Positions 1,721-48,512 of a DNA stretch of 64,000 nucleotides are shown here, piece after piece; positions within the stretch are counted from its first letter, which is position 1, and the number at the start of each line of letters is the position of its first letter. The position numbers and the translations under genes are program-made. This DNA is from Eledone cirrhosa (Eukaryota): contig OZ024742.1 in assembly GCA_964016885.1 (NCBI GenBank), positions 114,266,001 to 114,330,000 on the forward strand, in the 5' to 3' direction. The notes beneath the pieces were generated by a model. It saw only the letters and a program-made list of their open reading frames with translations. It ran no database searches and was not told the origin of the DNA.

Positions 1721-1843
1721 TAGAATTATCTTCTTAATTTCATATGAAAGATTTTATTAAATTTATATAGATCATCATAGAAAGATCATTGATAGCTAAA
1801 ATATTATTGTATATATATATATACACACACTCATATATATATT

Positions 1844-4785
1844 TCCGACCGCACGGAACCCCTAGACCCACGGACAACATACTTCACACTGAAGGACCAT
1901 AAATCCGATTTTTACCGTAAACCCTCTATCAGGCTTATTAACCCAACGAAGTCCGACAGAGGGAGAATCAGCAAAAAAATCCTAGACCGCCTGATACCAA
2001 AAGTCAAGCAACACGCCCGACTTAGCCTATGGATCAACACCCAGGAAGTAATCTCATGGTTCAGCAATATGGAGGATAAACGAGACACTAAATTCATACA
2101 GTTCGACATAGAGAGCTACTATGCTTCAATCACCTTACCGCTACTTACTGCCGCCTTGGACTTCGCCGAAACACTTGTGCCCATCACCGACCAGGAAAGA
2201 AAAATCATCCTCCACGCCAGGAAGACAGTCTTACTCTTTGACGACTCTAAATGGATAAAAAGAGCTCCCGACTCACCCTTCGACGTCATCATGGGCGCCA
2301 CGGATTGGGCGGAGGTCACAGATCTTATAGGATTATTCCTAATAGCCAAACTCACCGATATGTTTCCTGCATTCGGTGGTGGATTGTACCGTGATGATGG
2401 GCTCCTTACCCTTAAAGGGTACAACCCCAGTAGTACAGATCGGGTCCGGAAACAATTAATCAGCTTATTCCGCGACTGGGGATTTAAAATAACCCTACAA
2501 ACGTCCCTGACCCGAGTAAACTTCCTGGACGTGAACCTCGACCTCGAAAACGACCTGTACAACCCATACAGGAAACCTAATGACAACCTGCACTACATCC
2601 ACCGCCGATCAAACCATCGTAGCAACATCACCAACAACCTGGTCAAAAACATCTCCCTCCGCATATCCCGTTTGTCAGCTAATGAGCGGGTATTCGATGA
2701 ACATCCGCCTTATTACAACCAGGCCCTCAAGCGGAGTGGTTTCCGGGAGGAAATATCCTACTGTCCAGCTCTCATTAGCGGAACGTAGGAGACACCGCCG
2801 TTCACGCAATGTAACATGGTTCAATCCTCCCCACAACGCAGAGGTGACAACTCCCATCGGGAAACTAGTATTTAGGCTCATTGAAAAACACTTCCCACTA
2901 CAACACCGCTACCACAACATAATTAACAAAAATACCATCAAACTCTCTTACAGCACTACACCCAACTTCGCACAAAACATCGTCTCCTCTAACAACAAAA
3001 AACTCAACCCCGATGGAATAAATAACCTAAATAGCAGGAGGTGGAACTGTCCGGATAGATCCATTTGCCTACTCGACAATAGATGCAGAGACCGTAATGT
3101 GATCTATCAGTGCAACGTGAGGACGGATACCTCCAACAGGCTTATATAGGACTAACCGCATGTGACTTCAAGACCCGGCTATACCAACATAGACATACCT
3201 TCCGAAACCCTGCCCGGCGTCACGCCACTACACTTTCGGGCCTCATATGGGACCTCAAGGACAACAACATCACCTATGATCTCACTTGGAGATTACTGTC
3301 CAGAGCCAATTCTTACACGGGAGGACGCCGTCCGTGCAATTTATGCTCGGAGGAAAGTTTACAAATGCTGTTTTCGACGGACCAACTCCTAAACAAGAAA
3401 GATGAACTGGTTACTGCATGTAAACATAGATTGCGTAGGACTTACCACGCCCTCAAACCCCATAATGACCCGGGGGGGGGGGGTACACTAGGGCTATAAT
3501 ACCCCACTTGCCGATTTTGCAATGGGTAACCCCTGCTTGCCAAGGGAGACGTAAGAACTTTTTATTCTTTTATCGCTTCCCTTATTTCCCTCTCCCCCAT
3601 CCCTCCTTAGTCCTTCTACCCCAGTTCTTCTTTGTCGGCGTCTTTTCTCGCCCACCCAAGGCTGCCCTTTGGCCCCTTGTAGCCTCAGTACACCCACCCC
3701 CTCCCCTAGTATATGATAGATTTGGCGGACTCCGCTTTTTATAGCAGTTGTGTTAGACCCCGGATACTTGCCCCCTTTTCCGACCGCTCCCCCTATTTTC
3801 CGTGCTTTCTATATTTCTTAGTGGCACTTATGCCTTATTTTCTCGTTTCAGTATTTCTTTCTTCTATTTTCTTTTGGGCGGCGTTGATTCTGAATTTATT
3901 TTTCCGTATTCTACCTTTACTTCTTACGAACTTTCATGTAGCTTGTATACGATCTTTTGTAGCGCGGCGGTACCTTTAGAGTTAGCATTAGTATATATTT
4001 TTTTCGGGACTCAGAATTATTATCTAGTACTAGTTTACTTTGCTGCACTGGGTGGTTGCTGGCCTGGTGCCCGTGATAGAAACCTTTATTATTTATTTCG
4101 TGGTAGTTTTTTTAGTATTTTGGCCCCATTTGTTGACACGTCACCGTATGATTTACGTACTTATACCTCTTAAAAGGGTCCTGCCTATTCCGTCCCACCT
4201 AGTTTATTTACTTATTTCGTTATTTCTTTATTTCTTTCTTTATTTCTTTCTTTCTTTCTTTATTTATTTTTCTAGCCTAACAATAGCTAGAGACTTAGGT
4301 CGTAGAACTAGCTTTTATAGTCTTTTTTCTTTACACTTATTCGCTTTTCATCACTCTCAGTATTTTTTCTTTCATATATATATTTTTTACACCCCATTGT
4401 TTTACCTACCGTTTCGACTTCCTCCCCCTCCCCAGTATCTTCTTTGACCTCATGCCCAGCTGTAGCTAGCACTACCAACGCATGATTTGGTCTACTCCAC
4501 CCCTCCCCTTTTTCTCCTACTGGCAGGTTTAGCCACCATCTCCCCTACAATCACAGAATTACTACTACCTTTTGACAATCACTTTGACCATATATGGAAT
4601 TACCCCTTGAGAAGCTCGGCTATTTAAATACCAGGATAAATTTTCATTTAGTCCAGAATTAGCCGTCGAAACGGCTTGAGCTCAGTGTCGGGGTCTTACT
4701 TGTTCCTATTACCCACTCTACTACGCTAAGTAATGAGTACTTTGGTGCGTTATGGTCCACCTGGTTCCTTACCACATTTCCTTCG

Positions 4786-4787
<2 letters not shown>
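1844..4787 (+). mobile_element. 5'-truncated Penelope-like retroelement (RT + C-terminal GIY-YIG, probably Hydra clade), frameshifted, with long 3' UTR and HHR
   Basis: The open frame from 1844 reads YFTLKDHK...RLINPTKS, FIQFDIESYY, MGA, GLYRDDGL, VNFLDV and YRKPND. After frameshifts it reads WFNPP, KLSYS, C..C...NVIYQC, AYIGLT..FK.R..QH and CNLC...CKH. It is flanked by (TA)n on both sides. The clade call comes from motif recall, not a tree. Confidence 0.9.
4602..4694 (+). ncRNA. Type I hammerhead ribozyme, U3-A8 core variant
   Basis: acccc-TTGAGAA-[stem II cggcta...tagccg]-GAAAC-ggcttgagctcagt-GTC-ggggt. Stem I is acccc/ggggt. A second copy lies at 28003-28096. Confidence 0.75.
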
Positions 4788-4819: not shown

Positions 4820-7800
4820 TCATCATCATCATCATCATCATCGTTTAACGTCTATCTTCCACGCTTGCATGGGTTCGGACGGGTGTTGTCCCATTTGAGG
4901 CAAGATTGGTTGTCTTGCTCGTATAGGACTGTCTGGTGGGTTTTCTACGGATGGATGCCCTTCCTAACACCAACCACGTTTACAGTGTGGACTTGGACGT
5001 TTTTACCGTGTTACCTACACGGCCACATTACAGCGTGGACTGTGTGTCTTTTTTGTCGTGACACCTACACGACCTCAATTATTTCGGACTGGATATTGTG
5101 GTACCAACATAACTTTACATTGAAAGGGTTAGTGTGGATGGGGTGAGGTAGTGGGATGCAGGTGTATTTTTGTCAAGAGGTCCCTACTGACTGTAGGTTT
5201 CCCTTTGTACTTAGGCAAGGCGGGTCTTTTGTATTACTGTGTAGCGCCAAAGATCTCGGTCCAGTGACATTGTCTTGGAGAGGTGTTAGTGTATGATGTC
5301 GGAATTTATCAAGTCATCCCAGGTTTTTCTAGATCTGCCTACTCCGTCGCTACCGCCTATTTTTATCGCCCTGCACTTTTTTATACAGCTGTCATCTTTC
5401 ATGCGCATCACGTGATCATACCAACGTAGTCTTCTCTCGAGTAAACAACATCTGATCGCTCTTATTCCTAATTTATCCCTTAGTTCATTTATGCTTTGCC
5501 GTCCACGTATATTGCTATTACACACCCAACTGAGCATGCAAGCTTCGTTTCTCTCCAGTCTGCGTATATCCTCTGCACACAATACCCAAGTCTCACTGCC
5601 ATGTAACATTGATGTTCGTATGCAGGCATCATACTGCCTGCCTTTCAATTTTAGAGAGAAAACTTTAGCGGCCAATAGTGGTATAATTTCTCTGAACTTT
5701 TCCATCCCGTTCTGACTCTAACTACTATACTTTCAGAGCACCCTCCACCGCTGCTGATTGTGTCATCCAGGTAACGGAAGTGTCCACTATTTCTATAGAA
5801 TCGTCTGTGCAATGGAATGAGCTAGTATTCTGTGCGCACTTGCTGCTACTTATTGTACCTGAGCACCGGCGACATATAACATCTATATTCTTAGTTAGCT
5901 TATCTGTGATCCCACTACACCTTCTATGCACCCATTCTCTGCATTTGGGACATAAAATGGAGTTTCTGCTTACTCATTTCCTACATACTGAGCATGGCCA
6001 TTCCCCAGATGGGACCAGTGCCTTATTTTCCTTCCTACAAACTAGAACTTTAGTTTTAGACAGGTTAATTTTAAGGCCTTTTGATTCTAGGCCATGCTTC
6101 CATGTTTGGAATTTTTCTCTAGTTCAGCCATTGATTCAGCTATGAACGTTAGATCATCTGCGTATAGCAGTTCCCATAGGCAGCCGGTCTTGAACTCCTC
6201 TGTTATAGCCTGAAGGGCAATAATAAATAGGAGGGGGCTAAGAACGGAGCCCTGATGAACACCAACTGTTACGCTAAACTCTTCACTATATTCGTTGTTA
6301 ATTCTAACCTTGCTGACTGTTTCTTTATACATGGCTTGTATAGCTCTCACAAGCCATTCGTCAACACCTCGTATTCTGAGAGCCCACCAGATAATGGGGC
6401 GTGGGACTCTGTCAAAGACTTTCTCCAAGTCAACAAAAGCTAAGTATAGCTTAAGTACGTCGCCTGTAGTTGTCGTACAATGAAAAGAGCGTATGTGGTA
6501 CTTTTACCTGACACAAACCCGAACTGCATTTCATCTAGATCAAGTCGCTCTCTGATTAGTTGCGATATTACTTTTTCTGTGACCTTCATGGTCAATTAAT
6601 TTAATGCTTCTATAGTTTGCCCTATCTAGGGCTTCTCCTTTACCCGTGTAGCAGTTAATGATACTTCTGCTACGCCAGTAATTCGGAACGACCCCATTCT
6701 GTATGACTTGGTTTACTATCCGGGTGACCATAGTGTGTCCCACCGTTTCAGATGCTTTCAGCATTTCAGCAAATATTTCTGAAGACCCAGCCGCCTTGCC
6801 TGTCTTCATATCTTTGATCGTCTTACTTATTATACTACCTTCAACTTACACTGCTGGTCCTTCTATTGGATCGACGTGTGGGAGACTTTCTTTCTCCCAT
6901 TTATTCTCCTCATTTAGTAGCCTTTCGTAGTGACACTTACAAGCTACGTTCTTATGAGCATCAGTGATGGCAAGTACACCATCATCATTAAGGACACGCT
7001 TCTCCCCGACAATATCAAGGTTTTCCTTGACACATTGCCTAGCAATCCTGGTCCTCTTACGAAGTACACTTGTCTCCTAGCTCCCCCCCAGCCCCTTGAT
7101 AGTCTTCTCTACTTCCCCCAACCCACCATACTTTCCAAGCCTGCTTTTTGGCCTTGATTGACTCCTCCACCTTACTGTCCACCACCAAGTTACTCTCCTC
7201 CTGCCTATAGATCTGTTCCAGCCTCAGATTTCATCTGTCGCCTTCGGCAGGTTAGCTTTCAGGAATCCCACTGTTCCTCTATATTGTACGACTCTAATTG
7301 CTCTTCCTTACTATCAAAAGCATCAAGTAATATGCTTTTAAATTTATTAATGGCTGTGGGATTATTTAGCTTCCATATTCTTCTCCCGAGGATAGTCCTC
7401 CTCTGTTGTTGAGTACGTCTTGACCTGACAATGAGGTCTCTGATTATGAGTCTATGTTGAGAGGTGCATTCTTCATGGGGGAGGGATTTAGTGTTTACAA
7501 CAGACACTCTGTCACGTCTTCTAGTAACGATATAATCTATCTGGCTGGTGTAATCCCCTGATCAAGTGATCAAGTGATTGTCTCATATTTTGAAGTTAGT
7601 GTTACAGATAGTTAGGTTATTTGCGTCACAGAATTCCAGGATTCTGGAGCCTTCCTCATTTCTAGTACCAAACCCATAGCCTCCATGGATTCTGTCATAG
7701 CCGTCACGATGTTGTCCAACGTGACCATTTATGTCGCCTGCGATAATTATGTAGTCACTGTCGGTTATTTGGGAGTTAGTGAGCATTAACGACTCATAGA

Positions 7801-8400
7801 ATATCTTTTATAACGCCAGGCAGTCCGGATTGGGGTGCATATGCAGATATTATCGTCACAGTATTTCTATTGAGAACAAGTCTTATTTTAATTATTCTGT
7901 CGTTCACTCTATTTACGTCTATTACCTTATCTGCCCACGTTTCTGCTACCATGATACCTACTCCACCCAGCCCATTGTCATTTCCCACCCAGAAAAGCTT
8001 ATAGCATCGTTTTTTACCCACAATGAATCTAGCAGACCCACCCCTCCAACTGGTCTCTTGAATACACCAAACATCGACCTCCTTACGTTCAAGCATTTCT
8101 ACAACCTCGTTAGAGCGACCTTTTAAGGTGCCTACATTCATTGTACCAACTCTGAATTTTGGATTGCGTTTGGAGGGTGGGAACGGTGGGACGCAGGGGG
8201 TGGGGGTGGCGATATGGGGTTATGTTATCCATCCGCGGCAGAAATATAGAGGAGTAGTCCTTGCATTCTCGTCCGGCAGCATGAGGTGAATTTGTCTTTA
8301 TCTTTGGCATTGTCACTCAGTGTCCAGATTTTTTACTTGTCAAACTCTCCAGAATTCCGTAGTCCATCCATCATATCGAAAGGCAACCAGGTCTAAACTT
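4817..8400 (-). mobile_element. RTE-clade LINE (APE + RT, PHD-like finger), degraded, with (TGA)n 3' tail
   Basis: APE motifs NVGTLKGRS..VEMLER..VDVWCIQET, SAYAPQ and IAGDINGHVG...GFGTRNEEG. RT motifs GVHQGSVLSPLLF and ELLYADDL. C-terminal ERRLRWY.HVMRM...GRSRKTW. The (tca)n tail at 4817-4843 adjoins the (TA)n tract. The 5' boundary is uncertain. Confidence 0.9.
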
Positions 8401-12051: not shown

Positions 12052-14178
<2,127 letters not shown>

Positions 14179-14231: not shown

Positions 14232-14261
<30 letters not shown>

Positions 14262-14262
<1 letters not shown>

Positions 14263-14318
14263 GTAAGTATGTATGTATACGTTCATACATATATGTATAC
14301 AGACGTACAGTAGCATGC

Positions 14319-14357
<39 letters not shown>

Positions 14358-14808
14358 CATATACACATATGCATACAGGTACACATACACATATGCACGC
14401 ATCAGTTTAGCCGACGTTTATTATAACGCCTGCTTTGTTCGTTTGTTTGTCAACAAATCGAACAGCCTGAATTTATGCCATACGGTGTTAAGGCAACCAC
14501 GTCACCTTTTTGTTCAACACTGACACAGGAACGATGTACTAGTTTCAAGCTTGTTAGCTATCATCAGCACCGTTTACCCATCTGCCAGATAGTTGAACGT
14601 TCCAAAGTATATACTTTCCTTATGAAAATTAACGGCTGAGCAGCTTAATTTGCATATTGAGTGAGTTAAATCGGTCAGGCATACCGAAAACGATAAGTTG
14701 AAAAAAATGAAAACGAAATTTCATTTCTCACTCTTAGTATGGCACTTACTTAAATGTAAGTATGTATGTATACGTTCATACATATATGTATACAGACGTA
14801 CAGTAGCA

Positions 14809-14848
<40 letters not shown>

Positions 14849-15010
14849 CATATACACATATGCATACGTGGTTGCCTTAACACCGTATGGCATACATTCA
14901 GGCTGTTCGATTTGTTGACAAACAAACGAACAAAGCAGGCGTTATAATAAACGTCTGCTAAACTGATGCGTGCATATGTGTATGTGTACCTGTATGCATA
15001 TGTGTATATG

Positions 15011-15046
<36 letters not shown>

Positions 15047-15636
15047 TGCTACTGTACGTCTGTATACATATATGTATGAACGTATACATACATACTTACA
15101 TTTAAGTAAGTGCCATACTAGGAGTGAGAAATGAAATTTCGTTTTCATTTTTTCAACTTATCGTTTTCGGTATGCCTGACCGATTTAACTCACTCAATAT
15201 GCAAATTAGGCTGCTCAGCCGTTAATTTTCATAAGGAAAGTATATACTTTCGAACGTTCAACTATCTGGCAGATGGGTAAACGGTGCTGATGATAGCTAA
15301 CAAGCTTGAAACTAGTACATCGTTCCTGTGTCAGTGTTGAACAAAAAGGTGACGTGGTTGCCTTAACACCGTATGGCATAAATTCAGGCTGTTCGATTTG
15401 TTGACAAACAAACGAACAAAGCAGGCGTTATAATAAACGTCGGCTAAACTGATGCGTGCATATGTGTATGTATACCTGTATGCATATGTGTATATGTATG
15501 TATATATATATATATATATATATATGCATGCTACTGTACGTCTGTATACATATATGTATGAACGTATACATACATACTTACATTTAAGTAAGTGCCATAC
15601 TAAGAGTGAGAAATGAAATTCCGTTTTCATTTTTTT

Positions 15637-15640
<4 letters not shown>
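14262..15640. mobile_element. HHR-containing non-coding tandem element, family A (retrozyme-like), inverted + tandem copies
   Basis: About 1.3 monomers on the - strand (14262-14865), then about 1.6 monomers on the + strand (14867-15640), period about 482 bp. HHRs at 14530-14574 (-) and 15280-15324 (+). Flanked by (TA)n. Confidence 0.8.
15280..15324 (+). ncRNA. Type I hammerhead ribozyme (family A)
   Basis: aacggtg-CTGATGA-tagc(taacaa)gctt-GAAAC-ta-GTA-catcgtt. Predicted cleavage after 15317. Confidence 0.85.
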
Positions 15641-15714
<74 letters not shown>

Positions 15715-20868: not shown

Positions 20869-21338
20869 CAATATTAAATAAATGGAAAACTATATTTATA
20901 AAACCATATTTATTTCATTATATATATTTCGGGGATATCATATTAACAATATGCTATGCCTTCATCAGACAAAATACAATATAAACAGTTTTATAGATAA
21001 ATAGATTCGACATACCGTAATAAACACCGACTTCATTTGAAGAGGTTTACGCTAGCAGTTTACTGCTAGCGTAAACCTCTTCAAATGAAGTCGGTGTTTA
21101 TTACGGTATGTCGAATCTATTTATCTATAAAACTGTTTATATTGTATTTTGTCTGATGAAGGCATAGCATATTGTTAATATGATATCCCCGAAATATATA
21201 TAATGAAATAAATATGGTTTTATAAATATAGTTTTCCATTTATTTAATATTGTAAATATACTCCAAATATTTGTCGAGTGCTTTTATATCAGTTATAAAT
21301 ATTTACTAGTTGTAACCCAACAATTTTAAATATAACTT

Positions 21339-27232: not shown

Positions 27233-28106
27233 TAACGAAGGAAATGTGGTAAGGAACCAGGTGGACCATAACGCACCAAAGCGTTTGGGCGGGGTGGATT
27301 CTGAATTTATTTTTCCGTATTCTACCTTTACTTCGTACGAACTTTCATGTAGCTTGTTTTAGATCTTTTAGAGTTAGCATTAGTATATATTTTTCTCGGG
27401 ACTCAGAATTATTATCTCGTACAAGTTCACTTTGCTGCACTGGGTGGTTGGTGGCATTGTACCCGGAATGGAAACCTTTATTGTTTATTTCGTGGTAGTC
27501 TCTTTAGTATTTTGGCCCCTTTTGTTGACCCGTCACCGTATCATTTACGTACTTATACCTCTTAAAAGGGTCCTTGCCTATACCGTCCCACCTAGTTCTT
27601 TTACTTATTTCGTTATTTCTTTATTTCTTTCTTTACTTCTTTCTTTCTTTATTTATTTATTCTAGCCTAACAATAGCTAGAGACCTAGGTCGTAGAATTT
27701 AATTTACTTTACTTTTTTCTTTACACTTATTTGCTTTTCTTCACTCTCAGTATTTTTTCTTTCCTATATATTTCTACCCCCATTGTTCTACCTACCGTTC
27801 CGACTTCCTCCCCCTCCCCCTCCCCTGTATCTTCTTTGACCTCATGCCCAGCTGTAGCTGGCACTACCAACGCTTGATTGGGTCTACTCCACCCTCTCCC
27901 CTCTTTCTCCTAGTGGCAGGTTTAGCCACCATCTCCCCTACTAATTTGTAACCACAGAATTACTACTGATTTTTGACAATCACTTTGACCATATATGGAA
28001 TTACCCCTTGAGAAGATCGGCTATTTAAATAGCAGGATAAATTTTCATTTAGTCCAGAATTAGCCGTCGAAACGGCTTGAGCTCAGCTGTCGGGGTCTTA
28101 CTGGTT

Positions 28107-28108
<2 letters not shown>
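27233..28108 (+). mobile_element. 3' UTR copy of the 1844-4787 PLE with inverted 5' tip and HHR (28003-28096)
   Basis: 27282-28108 aligns to about 3873-4708. 27233-27281 is the reverse complement of the family 3' end (4740-4788). Confidence 0.85.
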
Positions 28109-28150
<42 letters not shown>

Positions 28151-28174
28151 TGTATATATAAATATATATATATA

Positions 28175-28229
<55 letters not shown>

Positions 28230-28232
<3 letters not shown>

Positions 28233-28650
28233 TAAGTTAAACATGTACATCCACATATGTATACTGAAATACTAGTATGCATATGAATACACACACGTAT
28301 ACATATGTAGATGTACCGAGTTTTTCACTGGTCACTTTACTGTGAGTGTCCAGCTATTCTGTATGTAAACACACAGACAAACCGGTTTTTAGAGTCATAC
28401 TGGTTTTTGAGGAAACACCTTTCCTCTATTCTCCAGAAAGCCAGACAAGGAATATTGAACTAGTTTCGATGTTGTTACATCTCATCAGCAATATTTACCT
28501 ATCTTCCGGCCTCTCTAGAGAATCGTAAAAGCACATATCGTTATATGCTTTTTCTATGAAAATTAGTAGTGGGCAGACTAATTTGCATAGAGCGTGAGTA
28601 CGTACCGGTTCAACGGAGACGATAAAAACAAATAACGAAACGAAATTAAA

Positions 28651-28655
<5 letters not shown>
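28230..28655 (-). mobile_element. Divergent family A monomer with intact HHR (28451-28495)
   Basis: The reverse strand reads aatattg-CTGATGA-gatgt(aaca)acatc-GAAAC-ta-GTT-caatatt. It retains the tatgcaaattag box (28581-28588) and the family A terminal motif (aacgaaacgaaatt). Confidence 0.8.
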
Positions 28656-28701
<46 letters not shown>

Positions 28702-29964: not shown

Positions 29965-30745
29965 CGCCCCACATGGCTGAATACGATAAATGTGATCTGT
30001 GTTTTTCGAATATTAATAATAATATTCGATTAGTTGGCAATTATGAAAACACCTTATTTTGTAAAACCATCTTAGTAGAATGAGTCCTTCATTCTTGGTC
30101 TTGTGTCGACATGTAAATAGAATTGGAGAGGCTAATGTTTGAACATATAGGATATTTTCTAATATATACAGTGACTGATCGGCCTGATTTTCATATTAGC
30201 AGACTGGCAGATCAGTTAGATCTACATATTAGCAGATCCACTGATCAGCCAATATTTGCATATCAGCAGACAGGCCAGTCAGTTTCCTGCATATGGATGT
30301 TCGCTGTTCATGGTTGAATGAAATAAATGCAATCTGAATTTTTTCGAATATTAATAATAATATTCGATTCGTTTGCAATTATGCATACAGCCACTTTGTT
30401 AAAGCCATGTCAGTAGAATGATCCCCTCATTATTGTATATGTGTTGGCATGTAATCAGAACTGCAGACACTAATGACTGATCAGCAAGTCTGCTAATATG
30501 CAAATCAGGCCGATCAGTCACTGTATATTTTATAAAATATCATATATTTTCTCTAGCTCTGACAGTTGGAAGATGAACAGTTAACCACACTGATGAAGGC
30601 TAATACCCTGAAACATTAGAATCTCCGGTTCTCTTTACATGCCAACACAAGAGCAAGAATGAGGGACTCATTCTACTGACATGGCCTTTTTCACAATTGT
30701 AAACGAATCGAATATTATTATTAATACACGAAGAACTCATATTAC

Positions 30746-34450: not shown

Positions 34451-35770
34451 AGCACTTTAATACATGAATACACTTACATCTAACTATACACATCAAACAT
34501 ATATATATATTTACTTATTTATATACATTTTCACATATATATATATATACTTATGGTCGCTTTTAGACACATTCATTATCGCATTTTTGCACCTATTCTC
34601 ATCAGCATATCTTTTCATTATTAGTGTGGTAATTTGAGGTTATTAATTTACATATATATGTTGAGAAGAAATTATTTTTATATTTTTCTAACTAGATTGA
34701 GGTTTATATAGTTAGGGGGATGTCCCTCTTTTTATGTAATATTCGGCTTGTAGTGGGAAAAAAGGGTTTTAGTTCGGTGACGGCAAAATAATGTTCGTTC
34801 AATTCTGTTATTCAGCAATTTCTTCTTGTGTGTGATTATGTAATAAATCTCAAGATTACACAATTTGCAGAAATTTTGTTCTCCTGGAAAAGCTTTGGGT
34901 TTTAGCTAATTTCTCCCATTTTAGGGTAAACTTTTGATCGCTATCCCTGAGCGTCCAAGCTTTTTCTGCTAAAGTTGTTACATTTCTTTGGCTCTGGTGT
35001 TTTATTGAGTAAGAATGCCTATATAATCAAGATTTAAACGATGTTGCCGTTGATCCTACGTAATACCACTCGTTGCTTCCGGATTTAATGGTACACTTAT
35101 AAATAATATTTTTTTCCAGGCAGTTATTGCCGAGGGGGCAGTCGTCACATCGGTGCAGTTACAGTTGTGTACGTTGGGTTTTCTCTGGAGTTGTATTGCG
35201 GACGAACTTAGGTGTTGTTTATTTATGTTCTGTAGTGTATTGTCTACTGTTTTTTTTGTGTTCTTTGTACTTAAGTTTTTATTGTTTTCGTTTAACCTTC
35301 TAGTATTGATCTTTTTTATGTGTTGTTCAAGGTTTAACGCTGTAGAGTATGACAGTCTTATTGTGGTAGGGTTTAGGATTTTGTGGTATTTGTGTGATGT
35401 AGGAACATGTCTCTTAATTATTTTAAAGAAGAGTACTGGTAAATTTGTACTAATGGAACTATTGTATTCGGGGTTATACCATAAGTACTCTTTGCATCGC
35501 TTTCTATTAGTTTTGTTTGTTGGTTTACTGGTGTGCATACTATGGTAGTAAGTGTGGTTTGGTGTTGCGTTATTATATCTACCTATGTGGGATTTATTTT
35601 GGGTGATTTGACTGTTCCCGTCTATATAATCTATTTTGTTGCTTTACTAAGGGCGTTATCGTAGTATTCGGCGTGTTCCTTAAATACTTGTATGTTAGAA
35701 GATAGACCCGAGATTCTAAGGGATATATTTTTAGGGATAGATATAATTATAGAGATGGGGTGGTTAGACC
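33657..35770 (-). mobile_element. 5'-truncated PLE (Hydra-like thumb + EN, frameshifted) with 3' HHR
   Basis: YLWYNPEYN...FFKIIKRHVPTSHKYHKILNPTTIRLSYS...CNC, followed by EN remnants to about 34770. Upstream remnant NISLRISGLSSN.QVFKEHAEYYDNAL. Confidence 0.8.
33696..33812 (-). ncRNA. Type I HHR with very long stem II insertion
   Basis: The reverse strand reads ttatt-CTGATGA-aatgacagt...(about 70 nt)...actgttata-GAAAC-acgt-GTC-aataa. Confidence 0.7.
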
Positions 35771-36261: not shown

Positions 36262-37020
36262 ATATGGGAAAAAATGAAACGAAATTTCATTTCTCACTTT
36301 TAGTACGGCTGTTACTTAAATATAAATATGTATACGTACATAATAAGCTTGAAACTAGTACAGCGTTCGTTTGTCAGTGTGGAACAAATGAGCAACGATG
36401 GTTGATAGACAATGTACGGCTTAATTCGGGATGGTTGTTTACAAACACACAGAACATTTAAATAAATGTTCGTTGAATCCATACGTACATATATATATAT
36501 ATATGTGTGCATGCATGTATATATACATACTACTGTACGTCTGTATACATATGTGTGTGTACGTATACAGACTTATATTTAAGTAACAGCCGTAGTAAGA
36601 TTGAGAAATGAAATTTCGTTTCCTTTTTTCCGTTTATCGTTTTCGGTGCGCCCGGCCGATTAACTCTCTCGATATGCAAATTAGGCTGCTCAGCCGTTAA
36701 TATGCATAAGGAAAGTATATACTTTCAGACGTTAAATCATCTGGCAGGAAGGTAAACGTTGCTGACGATAGCTAATATGCTTGAAACTAGTACAGCGTTC
36801 CTTTGTCAGTGTTGAACAAATAAGCAACGATGATTGCTAGACACTGTACGGCTTAATTTGGGATATGTGTTTACAAGAACACCGAGCATTATCATAATGT
36901 TCGGTGAATCCATACGTACATATATATATATATATGCGTGTGCATGTATGTATATATATATATACATACTACTGTACGTCTGTATACATATATGTATGTA
37001 CATATACATACTTATATATA
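36262..37020 (+). mobile_element. Family A array: short inverted tip + about 1.5 tandem monomers (period 432)
   Basis: gaaactagta occurs at 36351 and 36783. The intact HHR at 36755-36799 reads aacgttg-CTGACGA-tagc..gctt-GAAAC-ta-GTA-cagcgtt. Confidence 0.8.
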
Positions 37021-38237: not shown

Positions 38238-40450
38238 CGGGGACTGCGATGGGTACTTAATCATGGGATACTTGGAAGTCCAGATATATGAACAGTGCAA
38301 ATGAAAATACGGATTGAACTTCCACAAATATTTATCAGAGAATTGGAACCGCTACTTGGACAATTGTCTCATAATTTGGTCCCACACACTTGAAGAACTA
38401 AATGATTTCAAAATTGATTTAACGGCATCAATAACCACATCCAATTCACAATGTAATACAGCCAAGATCAACTCCCATTTCTGGACATCTTAATCTTAAA
38501 AAAAGACACAAATATCGAAACTGACATACACTACAAACCAACAGATTCCAAACAATACCTGCTATTCACCTCCAATCATCCAAAGCACACGAAGACGAAC
38601 ATTCCTTTTCACCTATCAAGAAGAATTTGCACAATTGTCTCCAATTATGAAAAGCGAAATAAAAGACTTCGAGAATTGAAGGAAATTCTACTGGAAAGAC
38701 AGTACCCACCATTAATAATAAATAATGGAATAGAAAGGGCTAAAGCAATAGGCATTGATGAATTACGAAAACAGAAACAAATTCAAGGTACGTCCAATAT
38801 TCTCTCATATAACTCAACACACAACCGAAGACATGCTGACATTATTCACAAGAACATCCCACTATTGAAACAAGACCCAAGAATGAAAAAAACCCTTGAA
38901 ACACAAAATAATCAAAAGCAAAAGACAACCGAAATCACTAAAAATATTACTCACCAATGCTAAATTACCTATCACAAATCCACAACCAACTGTCCAAAAA
39001 TGTGGTCGCTCTAATTGTGGAACCTGCACTCACCTCATTGAAGGCATCACATATACATTTCAATCAGGACAAAATGTTGCTGTAAAAACTCACTTCACTT
39101 GTTGATAAAAACATCTAGTTTATGTCATTAAATGTAAAAAATGCATTAATATTATATAGGACAAATTAAACTCCCACTCAGAAACAGAATGACAGTTCAT
39201 CGCCAACACTTACGAGATCCAATCACGAGACAGATACCACTAAGTGCCCTTCTAGACATATGTGCAAGTAATAAGACACCCACATTCCAAGGCTTCCCAT
39301 TTTACCTTTGCGCTGACAATACAACAGAACAAATACGAATGAATAAGGAAAATATGTTTATTCAAAAAGATGGACCTGCATTAAATATAGTTTAATATAC
39401 ATTATGTCAACACCATAACATGCTAACCATCCAAAGAGACACATGCATACACACACACGTAACACCTACTTTACAAAATAAAAGCCAGAACTAAATAAAC
39501 CTGAACATACGTTAATACTTTAACACCTTAACATGCTAACCCCACACCCCACGCACACATGACTCCCTCCCCCATTTCTACTAAAGGAATCATGTTCCTA
39601 CACACACACAAAAATATATATATTCCCTCCATCTTAACATGCTAACCTACCCCAACACACACATAACACCCATACACACACACACCTCCCTCCCACATCT
39701 CTACTAATAAAAGCATCTTCCTACACACATATACGCACACACACACACACAAGGACACAAATAAACATACATATCTCTACTTTCTTTATCTCAATAGAAA
39801 CTCTGAATTCTGACAAACCAGCGAACCAGCCATATTCACTGAACCAGAACAATTCTCCCCATCCCATTTCTCTGACCATTATCTTTTCTTTGGCACAACA
39901 TTCTCTAAAAGGCTACAAAATAAATTCCCAAATACGGGGGCGAAAATTTAATTAACTTGTTCACGTGACAGTCATAATTTCATTTATAATCCATCAAATT
40001 TACATTTTTTTTTTAAATCCTTCATGGGCCACTTTTTTAAAGTAAAAAGAAATTCAAACAAACTGGCGCGAAAGCTGATGTGCGTATTCGCGTGACTGCA
40101 TCAACCAACCAAATTTCACTCATGTATGAAGAAACAACCTGAGCCCACACACGCCACCCGTCCCATTTGTTTGAAGAAATGTGTAACGTGAACTGGCGCG
40201 AAATTTATTATACTTATTCACCAACGAATCAAATTACTTCTCTAAAAACCTGGCATTTCGATCCAATTTTTTCCATATAAAACAAGTAACGTTCAAAGAA
40301 CAACCAGATGTGAGAAAAACCACAGACACTCCATCTCAAATCTATTTTTGAAAAGCAGGAGAACTGCGAAACCGGTAAAGGAACCAAATAAATATATATA
40401 TTTAAAAAAAAAGACTCCAATTGCATTTTCGATTTCATCTTTTTTCCTTA
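38238..40450 (+). mobile_element. 5'-truncated Neptune-like PLE (RT-thumb-EN, multiple stops/frameshifts) with 3' HHR
   Basis: GTAMGT, MGYLE, WNRYLDNC..IW, IQFTM, LPFLDI, YKPTDSKQYL..SNHPKHTKTNIPF, KCGRSNCGTC, LVYVIKCKKC, YIGQ and RMTVHRQH. The coding remnant ends at about 39395. Confidence 0.85.
40341..40382 (+). ncRNA. Minimal HHR, U3-A8 core
   Basis: ttt-TTGAAAA-gcag(gagaa)ctgc-GAAAC-cg-GTA-aag. Confidence 0.7.
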
Positions 40451-40464
40451 TATATATATATATA

Positions 40465-41797
<1,333 letters not shown>

Positions 41798-45719: not shown

Positions 45720-48512
<2,793 letters not shown>

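Follow-up and report, generated by a model that had tools for sequence, protein, structure and literature searches.

Young hammerhead-bearing repeats in Eledone cirrhosa are probably non-LTR retrozymes, with a covarying RNA fold and Penelope-like insertion ends

The window analysed here is a stretch of 64,000 nucleotides of Eledone cirrhosa DNA (contig OZ024742.1, positions 114,266,001 to 114,330,000). At 28229-28652, on the minus strand, it holds a 5'-truncated monomer of a repeat that we refer to as family B. The monomer runs from about position 272 to about position 229 of a 466-nt unit, across the cut site of a hammerhead ribozyme, and is without the 3' strand of helix P2. Its 3' end coincides with a fixed end site (site 1), and its 5' junction carries three additional bases (28653-28655). 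A target-site duplication is unreadable, since (TA)n occurs on both flanks. No open reading frame of at least 120 aa was found in the copy, and its linear fold has a z score of -5.0. Its parts and flanks are:

28109-28228, unstranded: (TA)n target tract at the 3' end of the copy
28245-28316, minus: H4, a long AU-rich hairpin kept in families A and B, with two double changes
28394-28426, minus: hairpin H1 (28426-28409) and the 5' strand of the long-range helix P2 (28400-28394)
28428-28523, minus: extension of stem I (28523-28506 with 28444-28428), closing the predicted circle
28435-28506, minus: canonical type I hammerhead (core pattern and Rfam HH9 model)
28495-28489 and 28457-28451, minus: hammerhead stem I, AAUAUUG and CAAUAUU
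28488-28482, minus: hammerhead core CUGAUGA
28481-28468, minus: stem II region with UAACAA loop
28467-28458, minus: GAAACUAGU-U element (GAAA plus the palindromic ACUAGU)
between 28458 and 28457, minus: predicted cut at a GUU site
28527-28552, minus: hairpin described in the first-pass annotation as lying upstream; a shorter counterpart is found at the same place in family A
28554-28590, minus: hairpin, a conserved block with the octamer ATGCAAAT in its 5' arm
28656-28698, unstranded: (TA)n tract at the 5' end of the copy

The pattern CUGANGA..GAAA occurs 14 times in the window, as compared to 2.4 expected by chance. The ribozyme of the family B copy has the hallmarks of a canonical type I hammerhead, i.e. 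CUGANGA, GAAA, the A15.1-U16.1 pair, an H17 other than G, a helix I of 6 bp, a helix II of 4 bp, and a short helix III with a palindromic loop. No Rfam match reached the gathering score across the window. At lower stringency the best match of the copy was Hammerhead_HH9, a low-copy motif of amniotes, over the whole model (36.5 bits, E 1.1e-7, cut-off 52). With HH9 (RF02275, clan CL00010) it shares a 6-bp stem I with an internal loop, a 4-bp stem II and a 6-nt loop 2, whereas its helix III is reduced to the palindrome. The unpaired UAAYAA (loop 2) and GGUAWA (bulge) are common to families A and B, and both align with the HH9 loops. Position H17 was U, C or A, and never G, in all 292 cores from fetched loci (144 B and 148 A), and the palindromic helix III ACUAGU was found in 142 of the 144 B cores and 146 of the 148 A cores, in loci that were largely found via the core itself. 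A GUU cleavage site is poorer than GUC or GUA; the window B copy, like the B1/B2 subfamilies, has GUU, and family A has GUA.

The first-pass annotation had derived compensatory changes from a comparison of this ribozyme with two family A copies in the window. The stem I and stem II region it quoted is indeed present on the minus strand (28495-28451), and the family A stems at 15280 and 36755 (cores from 15287 and 36762) are as given there. As for stem II, it is correct that the sequences differ with pairing kept. In register, however, the stem comprises four positions, GAUG/CAUC in B versus UAGC/GCUU in A, on either side of a UAACAA loop common to both, and the base of the stem in A is a U.U mismatch that had been left out. 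Two of the pairs are true double changes. Across family A the stem II base is U.U or C.A, the latter in subfamily A4.

Helix III is unformed in the predicted fold of the monomer. A palindromic helix III is described as hindering cleavage of monomers, tandem copies folding as an active dimer (PMC4209133), and the same dimer behaviour is described for axolotl retrozymes, one family with U.U in helix II among them (PMC7229834). By analogy, and judging from the predicted folds, self-cleavage, which the first-pass annotation had taken as a functional property of the family, is likely as a dimer in tandem transcripts. A point against is that in one study of Xenopus only one of nine retrozyme dimers predicted to be active underwent cleavage in vitro (Li, Clavereau and Pollet, bioRxiv 10.64898/2026.07.22.740005). 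Efficient cleavage in cis by the solitary window copy appears doubtful on the same model, as it has a single ribozyme with a GUU site and a helix III reduced to the minimal palindrome, and the copy is probably a dead-end product.

Whole-genome searches placed the copy in a large repeat class. The pattern CUGANGA-N10-24-GAAACUAGU was found 40,658 times genome-wide and its reversed control 23 times, and roughly 40,000 ribozyme cores amount to a sizeable repeat class in this genome. Exact B-type cores numbered 9,305 (control, 0). When the genome was searched with the window copy, 13 of the 28 matches listed were 96-100% identical over the full query, and a second group among them was about 89% identical. 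B units measure 466-470 bp and occur in head-to-tail arrays of up to about 31 units; one array holds 30 complete monomers that are 98.1-100% identical to the commonest one. Across families the unit ranges from 427 to 493 nt with a GC content of 35.5-36.9%, and copies within subfamilies and arrays are 97-100% identical. Subfamily A1 is very young (99% identity) and A2 older (93-95%). A search for cores with a C/A base gave 1,444 matches, of which the first 100 were mostly A4, and a search for further lineages with different G-C stem II types gave a single match. Family A is represented in the window by three insertions:

14258-15644, two inverted arms: family A1, ends site 1 (left) and site 2 (right), hammerheads at 14543-14567 (minus) and 15287-15311 (plus)
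36266-36960, plus: family A2 with a short inverted arm, hammerhead at 36762-36786
40468-41700, unstranded: older family A insertion, inverted arm and tandem units, hammerhead at 41014-41038 (plus)

The copy at 28229-28652 had been described as a divergent member of family A, barely alignable outside the ribozyme. Judged by its close relatives, up to 99% identical, it is instead a young member of a separate sister family and not a decayed family A copy. Families A and B are collinear along the whole unit at about 60% identity (0.59-0.63, versus 0.49 and at most 0.51 for shuffled sequences), and 173 of 521 columns are invariant in an end-to-end alignment, made on sequence only, of 14 full natural monomers from five subfamilies. 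The family had also been called old. In sequence terms this fits the A/B split, to which no date is attached; the copies themselves are young. Near-identical B sequence was found in contigs under three organism labels (four runs, the kind of contig being uncertain) and hence gives no date.

Within the alignment, RNAalifold predicted 77 pairs, 22 of them with a double change. With a structure derived from B1 alone, 86.4% of the cells were paired, as compared to 26-50% when the structure was slid along the alignment, and double changes were seen in 20 of 126 pairs. Because the rows of the alignment are related, covariation was assessed lineage against lineage. The majority row of one lineage was folded, pairs with a probability of at least 0.8 were retained, and the letters of the target lineage were permuted 20,000 times within each pair type. 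The two directions of a comparison are non-independent, and for groups of two members the tie was broken by a third row from another subfamily. From B12 to A2 there were 15 double changes in 102 pairs against 4.4 expected, and 15 against 5.9 in the opposite direction; the corresponding figures were 15 against 6.4 from B12 to A1, 12 against 5.0 from A1 to B12, and 17 against 5.5 from B12 to A4 (p<=1e-3 in each case). Subfamilies A1 and A2 differed by 6 double changes against 0.5 expected in one run (from A1 to A2, p<=1e-3) and 5 against 0.8 in the other. The comparisons from A2 to A4 (one double change) and from B12 to B3 (none) were not significant.

The excess persisted outside the parts that had been singled out earlier. 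With the ribozyme and the upstream hairpin removed, there were 9 double changes against 2.3 expected (p 5e-5), 8 against 3.9 (p 0.02), 9 against 4.0 (p 0.004) and 7 against 3.4 (p 0.03). The clearest helix outside the ribozyme is P2, whose strands lie about 225 nt apart, with 98% of cells paired and two double changes. The upstream hairpin is less clear. It had been quoted from the plus strand and is longer in B than in A; none of its 11 pairs is doubly changed with the B1 structure, and two of four are in the RNAalifold register. Since its pairing is kept via a change in length, its covariation depends on the alignment. Several helices are without a pair-by-pair register (38-79% of cells paired). 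The circular folds of B1, A1 and A2 have z scores of about -8 to -9 (15 shuffles each); for one older A4 copy the reverse strand gave a marginally better fold. Changes private to single copies were mostly pair-breaking (21 of 21 in A2, 14 of 20 in B1/B2), and from B1 to A2e 16 of 30 single changes broke a pair. G.U was not clearly above A.C between families (9 versus 6, 11 versus 10), an asymmetry that is uninformative. Thus the proposal of selection on RNA structure in the master copies has held up with 12-17 Watson-Crick double changes against 4-6 expected, 7-9 of them outside the ribozyme, although the example of the upstream hairpin has become dependent on the alignment. The comparisons, informed by about five lineages, support the view that RNA structure has been under selection in the master lineages beyond the parts first named.

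The ends of the insertions were mapped for 26 B insertions sampled within the first 31 Mb of contig C1 and chosen by core pattern alone. Of 43 arms, 41 ended at one of two sites, unit position 228-234 (approximately; site 1) or 301-303 (site 2), in BLAST coordinates in which as many as 4 bases match TA by chance. Almost every arm end abuts (TA)n; one B insertion (L083/L242) is flanked by (ATC)n instead. Among 17 two-armed inverted insertions, 15 had one end of each kind, none had the same end twice, and in the remaining two one arm ended elsewhere. The same arrangement, at homologous sites, was seen in all five two-armed insertions among 17 family A loci. The two sites bound a tail of about 70 nt in B and 57 nt in A, so placed that one end of an insertion carries the extension and the other does not. 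The 5' ends, in contrast to these fixed ends, were scattered. Four of 43 lay within 21 nt past the cut site (about two expected), which does not single out cleaved linear RNA as the template. A seeming concentration of 5' ends at unit position 272 proved to be a query-end artefact and was absent from the pattern-picked sample. The tail and the inverted 5' copies match the pattern described for Penelope-like elements, PLEs (PMC8557442), and an anole PLE has been described as using two internal start sites, with both target strands extended (PMC11167929). Together with 5' truncation, partial tandems, an inverted 5' copy and a microsatellite target, all of which were observed, the ends amount to a Penelope-like 'tail' signature and give good genomic evidence for PLE-type mobilisation.

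In one insertion of about 20 B units in two opposite arms (L240, C1:30,831,600-30,840,900), 18 complete monomers are without a single difference. This would be a very recent event, unless the assembly has been smoothed, and 18 identical monomers are what is expected from repeated copying of one RNA. Shared variants were present in all of the other five arrays examined, two of which share minor variants across both arms; this favours multimers over monomer circles as templates, or else conversion or DNA exchange at a later time.

The reading that we favour, with a probability of roughly 80%, is that family B is a non-LTR retrozyme, i.e. a type I hammerhead within a 466-nt RNA that is predicted to be highly paired, likely cleaves itself as a dimer and is likely copied into (TA)n by the enzymes of a PLE. 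Its cycle could proceed as follows. Arrays would be transcribed through several units, and two ACUAGU palindromes would pair, completing helix III and releasing monomers, which a host ligase could circularise. A PLE protein would then nick both strands of a TA tract, and reverse transcription would begin internally on the RNA, from site 1 for one strand and from site 2 for the other. Joining of the two cDNAs at their far ends would give the inverted arms, and long runs round the circle, or along a multimer, would give the arrays. If fold-keeping masters alone leave offspring, families would come to be separated by double changes and single copies would decay.

An alternative that we consider improbable is that B derives from a PLE, is non-autonomous and is copied from a multimeric transcript that stays uncut, the fold serving binding and priming by the reverse transcriptase and the ribozyme being weak, protein-dependent or dispensable for transposition. 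Insertions do extend across the cut site, where 5' ends are not clearly concentrated, variants are common to both arms in some arrays, and GUU in B1/B2 and the U.U or C.A base of stem II in A would suit a weak ribozyme. Moreover, ribozyme mutants of the anole PLE are described as inserting normally, cleavage needing protein (PMC11167929). Nevertheless, the core, the palindrome and the unpaired loop bases have been kept across lineages 40% apart, with H17 remaining A, C or U, the identical 18-mer fits a single circular template, and in coral, mussel and axolotl circular RNA is formed from retrozymes with this architecture (PMC7229834).

Far less probable still is an origin of the double changes by template switching or conversion between the arms of inverted repeats, in the absence of RNA selection and with the arrays as DNA-level satellites. 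Such a process might produce the nearly perfect palindromes H4 and H6, the lack of a clear excess of G.U over A.C, and the semi-periodic shared variants of some arrays. Double changes occur also in short or distant helices (P2, stems I and II), however, the unpaired catalytic bases are invariant, and the fixed ends together with dispersed young copies show retrotransposition. We find it hardly credible that A and B have no more than a hammerhead module in common, or that B represents the terminal repeat of some intact PLE: about 60% identity is modest for AT-rich sequence and the comparison with PLEs covered three families, but the alignment is collinear above the shuffled baseline, the helices follow one another in the same order, the end sites are homologous, pure arrays extend to about 31 units, and no consistent PLE ORF is joined to A or B in 138 loci.

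In the same genome, at least three PLE families are present that we take to be Neptune-like from their linker motif and the published description, with ORFs of 784-786, 785 and 713-714 aa; two of them have many intact ORFs of 784-786 aa. Fragments of these families gave no Pfam match. Compared with A and B, the three families shared no sequence beyond AT-rich simple sequence and neighbouring separate insertions, and no homology of A or B to their untranslated regions or pLTRs was found. PLE fragments near A or B copies, inspected at eight loci, were mostly separated from them by TA tracts, with no consistent junction. Young Neptune-like copies in the window are:

1841-4786, plus: young Neptune-like PLE copy
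27284-28108, plus: young Neptune-like PLE copy, an end fragment whose tail faces that of the window B copy over a single (TA)n tract

This young family has an ORF of 784-786 aa, a tandem unit of about 3.5 kb, a tail of about 79 nt and no canonical hammerhead. A second young Neptune-like family (L313 on contig C8; in the window at 35059-35643, minus, and 40300-40450) has a 785 aa ORF that occurs in many identical copies, and its terminal repeat contains a hammerhead-like core. In L169-L170 (C1:91.48-91.49 Mb), a PLE coding piece of about 53 bp is tandemly arrayed at the 5' end of a four-copy PLE insertion.

Other hammerhead-like cores in the window, with a longer stem II and most of them in inverted pairs, are located at 12218-12246 (minus), 13141-13169 (plus), 20927-21194, 30590-30613 (plus), 45829-45875 (minus) and 48147-48193 (plus). 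The pair at 12218-12246 and 13141-13169 flanks a GIY-YIG fragment at 12215-12730 (Pfam PF01541, E 5.6e-4, below cut-off). Other PLE families are the likely source of these cores, which would be their pLTR ribozymes. At 5286-8219 (minus) lie endonuclease and reverse transcriptase pieces of a fragmented non-LTR element, RTE-like by eye.

A tentative extension, possible but on the doubtful side of even, is that the covarying scaffold, P2 and the adjacent hairpins, serves as a landing pad recognised by shape. The helper would then need no sequence likeness to the retrozyme. It could be a dimeric Neptune-type reverse transcriptase whose subunits start at site 1 and site 2 on opposite target strands and roll round the RNA circle, laying down up to 20-30 units per event. 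As very young copies occur in the same genome as intact PLE ORFs, both the helper and the recognised RNA shape would be testable with the in vitro PLE assay (PMC11167929).

The retrozyme class itself is known, and we regard A and B as new members of the non-LTR retrozymes. Tandem hammerhead repeats, and compensatory changes between their families, have been described before (PMC7229834; PMC4209133). The metazoan non-LTR retrozymes (Cervera and de la Pena 2020, PMC7229834) share with A and B the tandem low-GC repeats, the type I hammerhead and a self-paired predicted circle, and in axolotl likewise two families occur in one genome, one with U.U at the base of helix II. The A/B unit of 427-493 nt is at or above the 150-450 bp range given there. 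In contrast to that set, both A and B have a palindromic minimal helix III; expressed circles were seen there and are a prediction here. The fixed double 3' ends and inverted arms were not found described in the parts of that paper that were covered. Vertebrate retrozymes, presented by Li, Clavereau and Pollet as PLE derivatives, likewise occur as monomers, dimers and multimers together with PLEs, and the A/B unit is within their range of 51-972 bp. They have been linked to PLEs through co-occurrence and through pLTR homology (TE matches in 24 of 57 Xenopus families), whereas for A and B the link comes from insertion anatomy, with no homologous pLTR among the three Neptune-like families.

PLEs themselves, including Poseidon PAc in vitro, share the two internal start sites of reverse transcription that bound a tail, the extension of both strands, AT-rich or (TA)n targets, 5' truncation and inverted arms (PMC8557442; PMC11167929). 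A and B differ in having no ORF and a longer tail (about 70 and 57 nt, compared to 30-40), and their two-armed insertions mostly pair site 1 with site 2, whereas PAc in vitro is described as having no strand difference in start site. In the open-access literature on cephalopod or octopus hammerheads and retrozymes, covered mostly by title, we found no description of the A/B families or of retrozyme tail ends, and the main text of an octopus repeat annotation (PMC13282606) is without mention of hammerheads. Mobilisation of retrozymes has so far been argued from co-occurrence and homology. Here two diverged lineages reveal which helices are kept, and the insertion ends map two likely start sites of reverse transcription.

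The longest non-catalytic block common to A and B contains ATGCAAAT. An snRNA-type promoter has been reported for newt satellite 2, as cited in PMC2220036, and an internal promoter of this type was considered for A and B and rejected: no exact octamer was found upstream of 14 distinct host U1/U2 promoters, the best scores of the retrozymes (-5.7 to -0.7) fell below the median of random windows (0.8), and the host proximal element was not matched. The host U1/U2 genes (L175-L222) themselves share a proximal element upstream, with AATTA at about -92 and TCAGT at about -58, and, farther out near -255, a CCCTT motif rich in pyrimidines.
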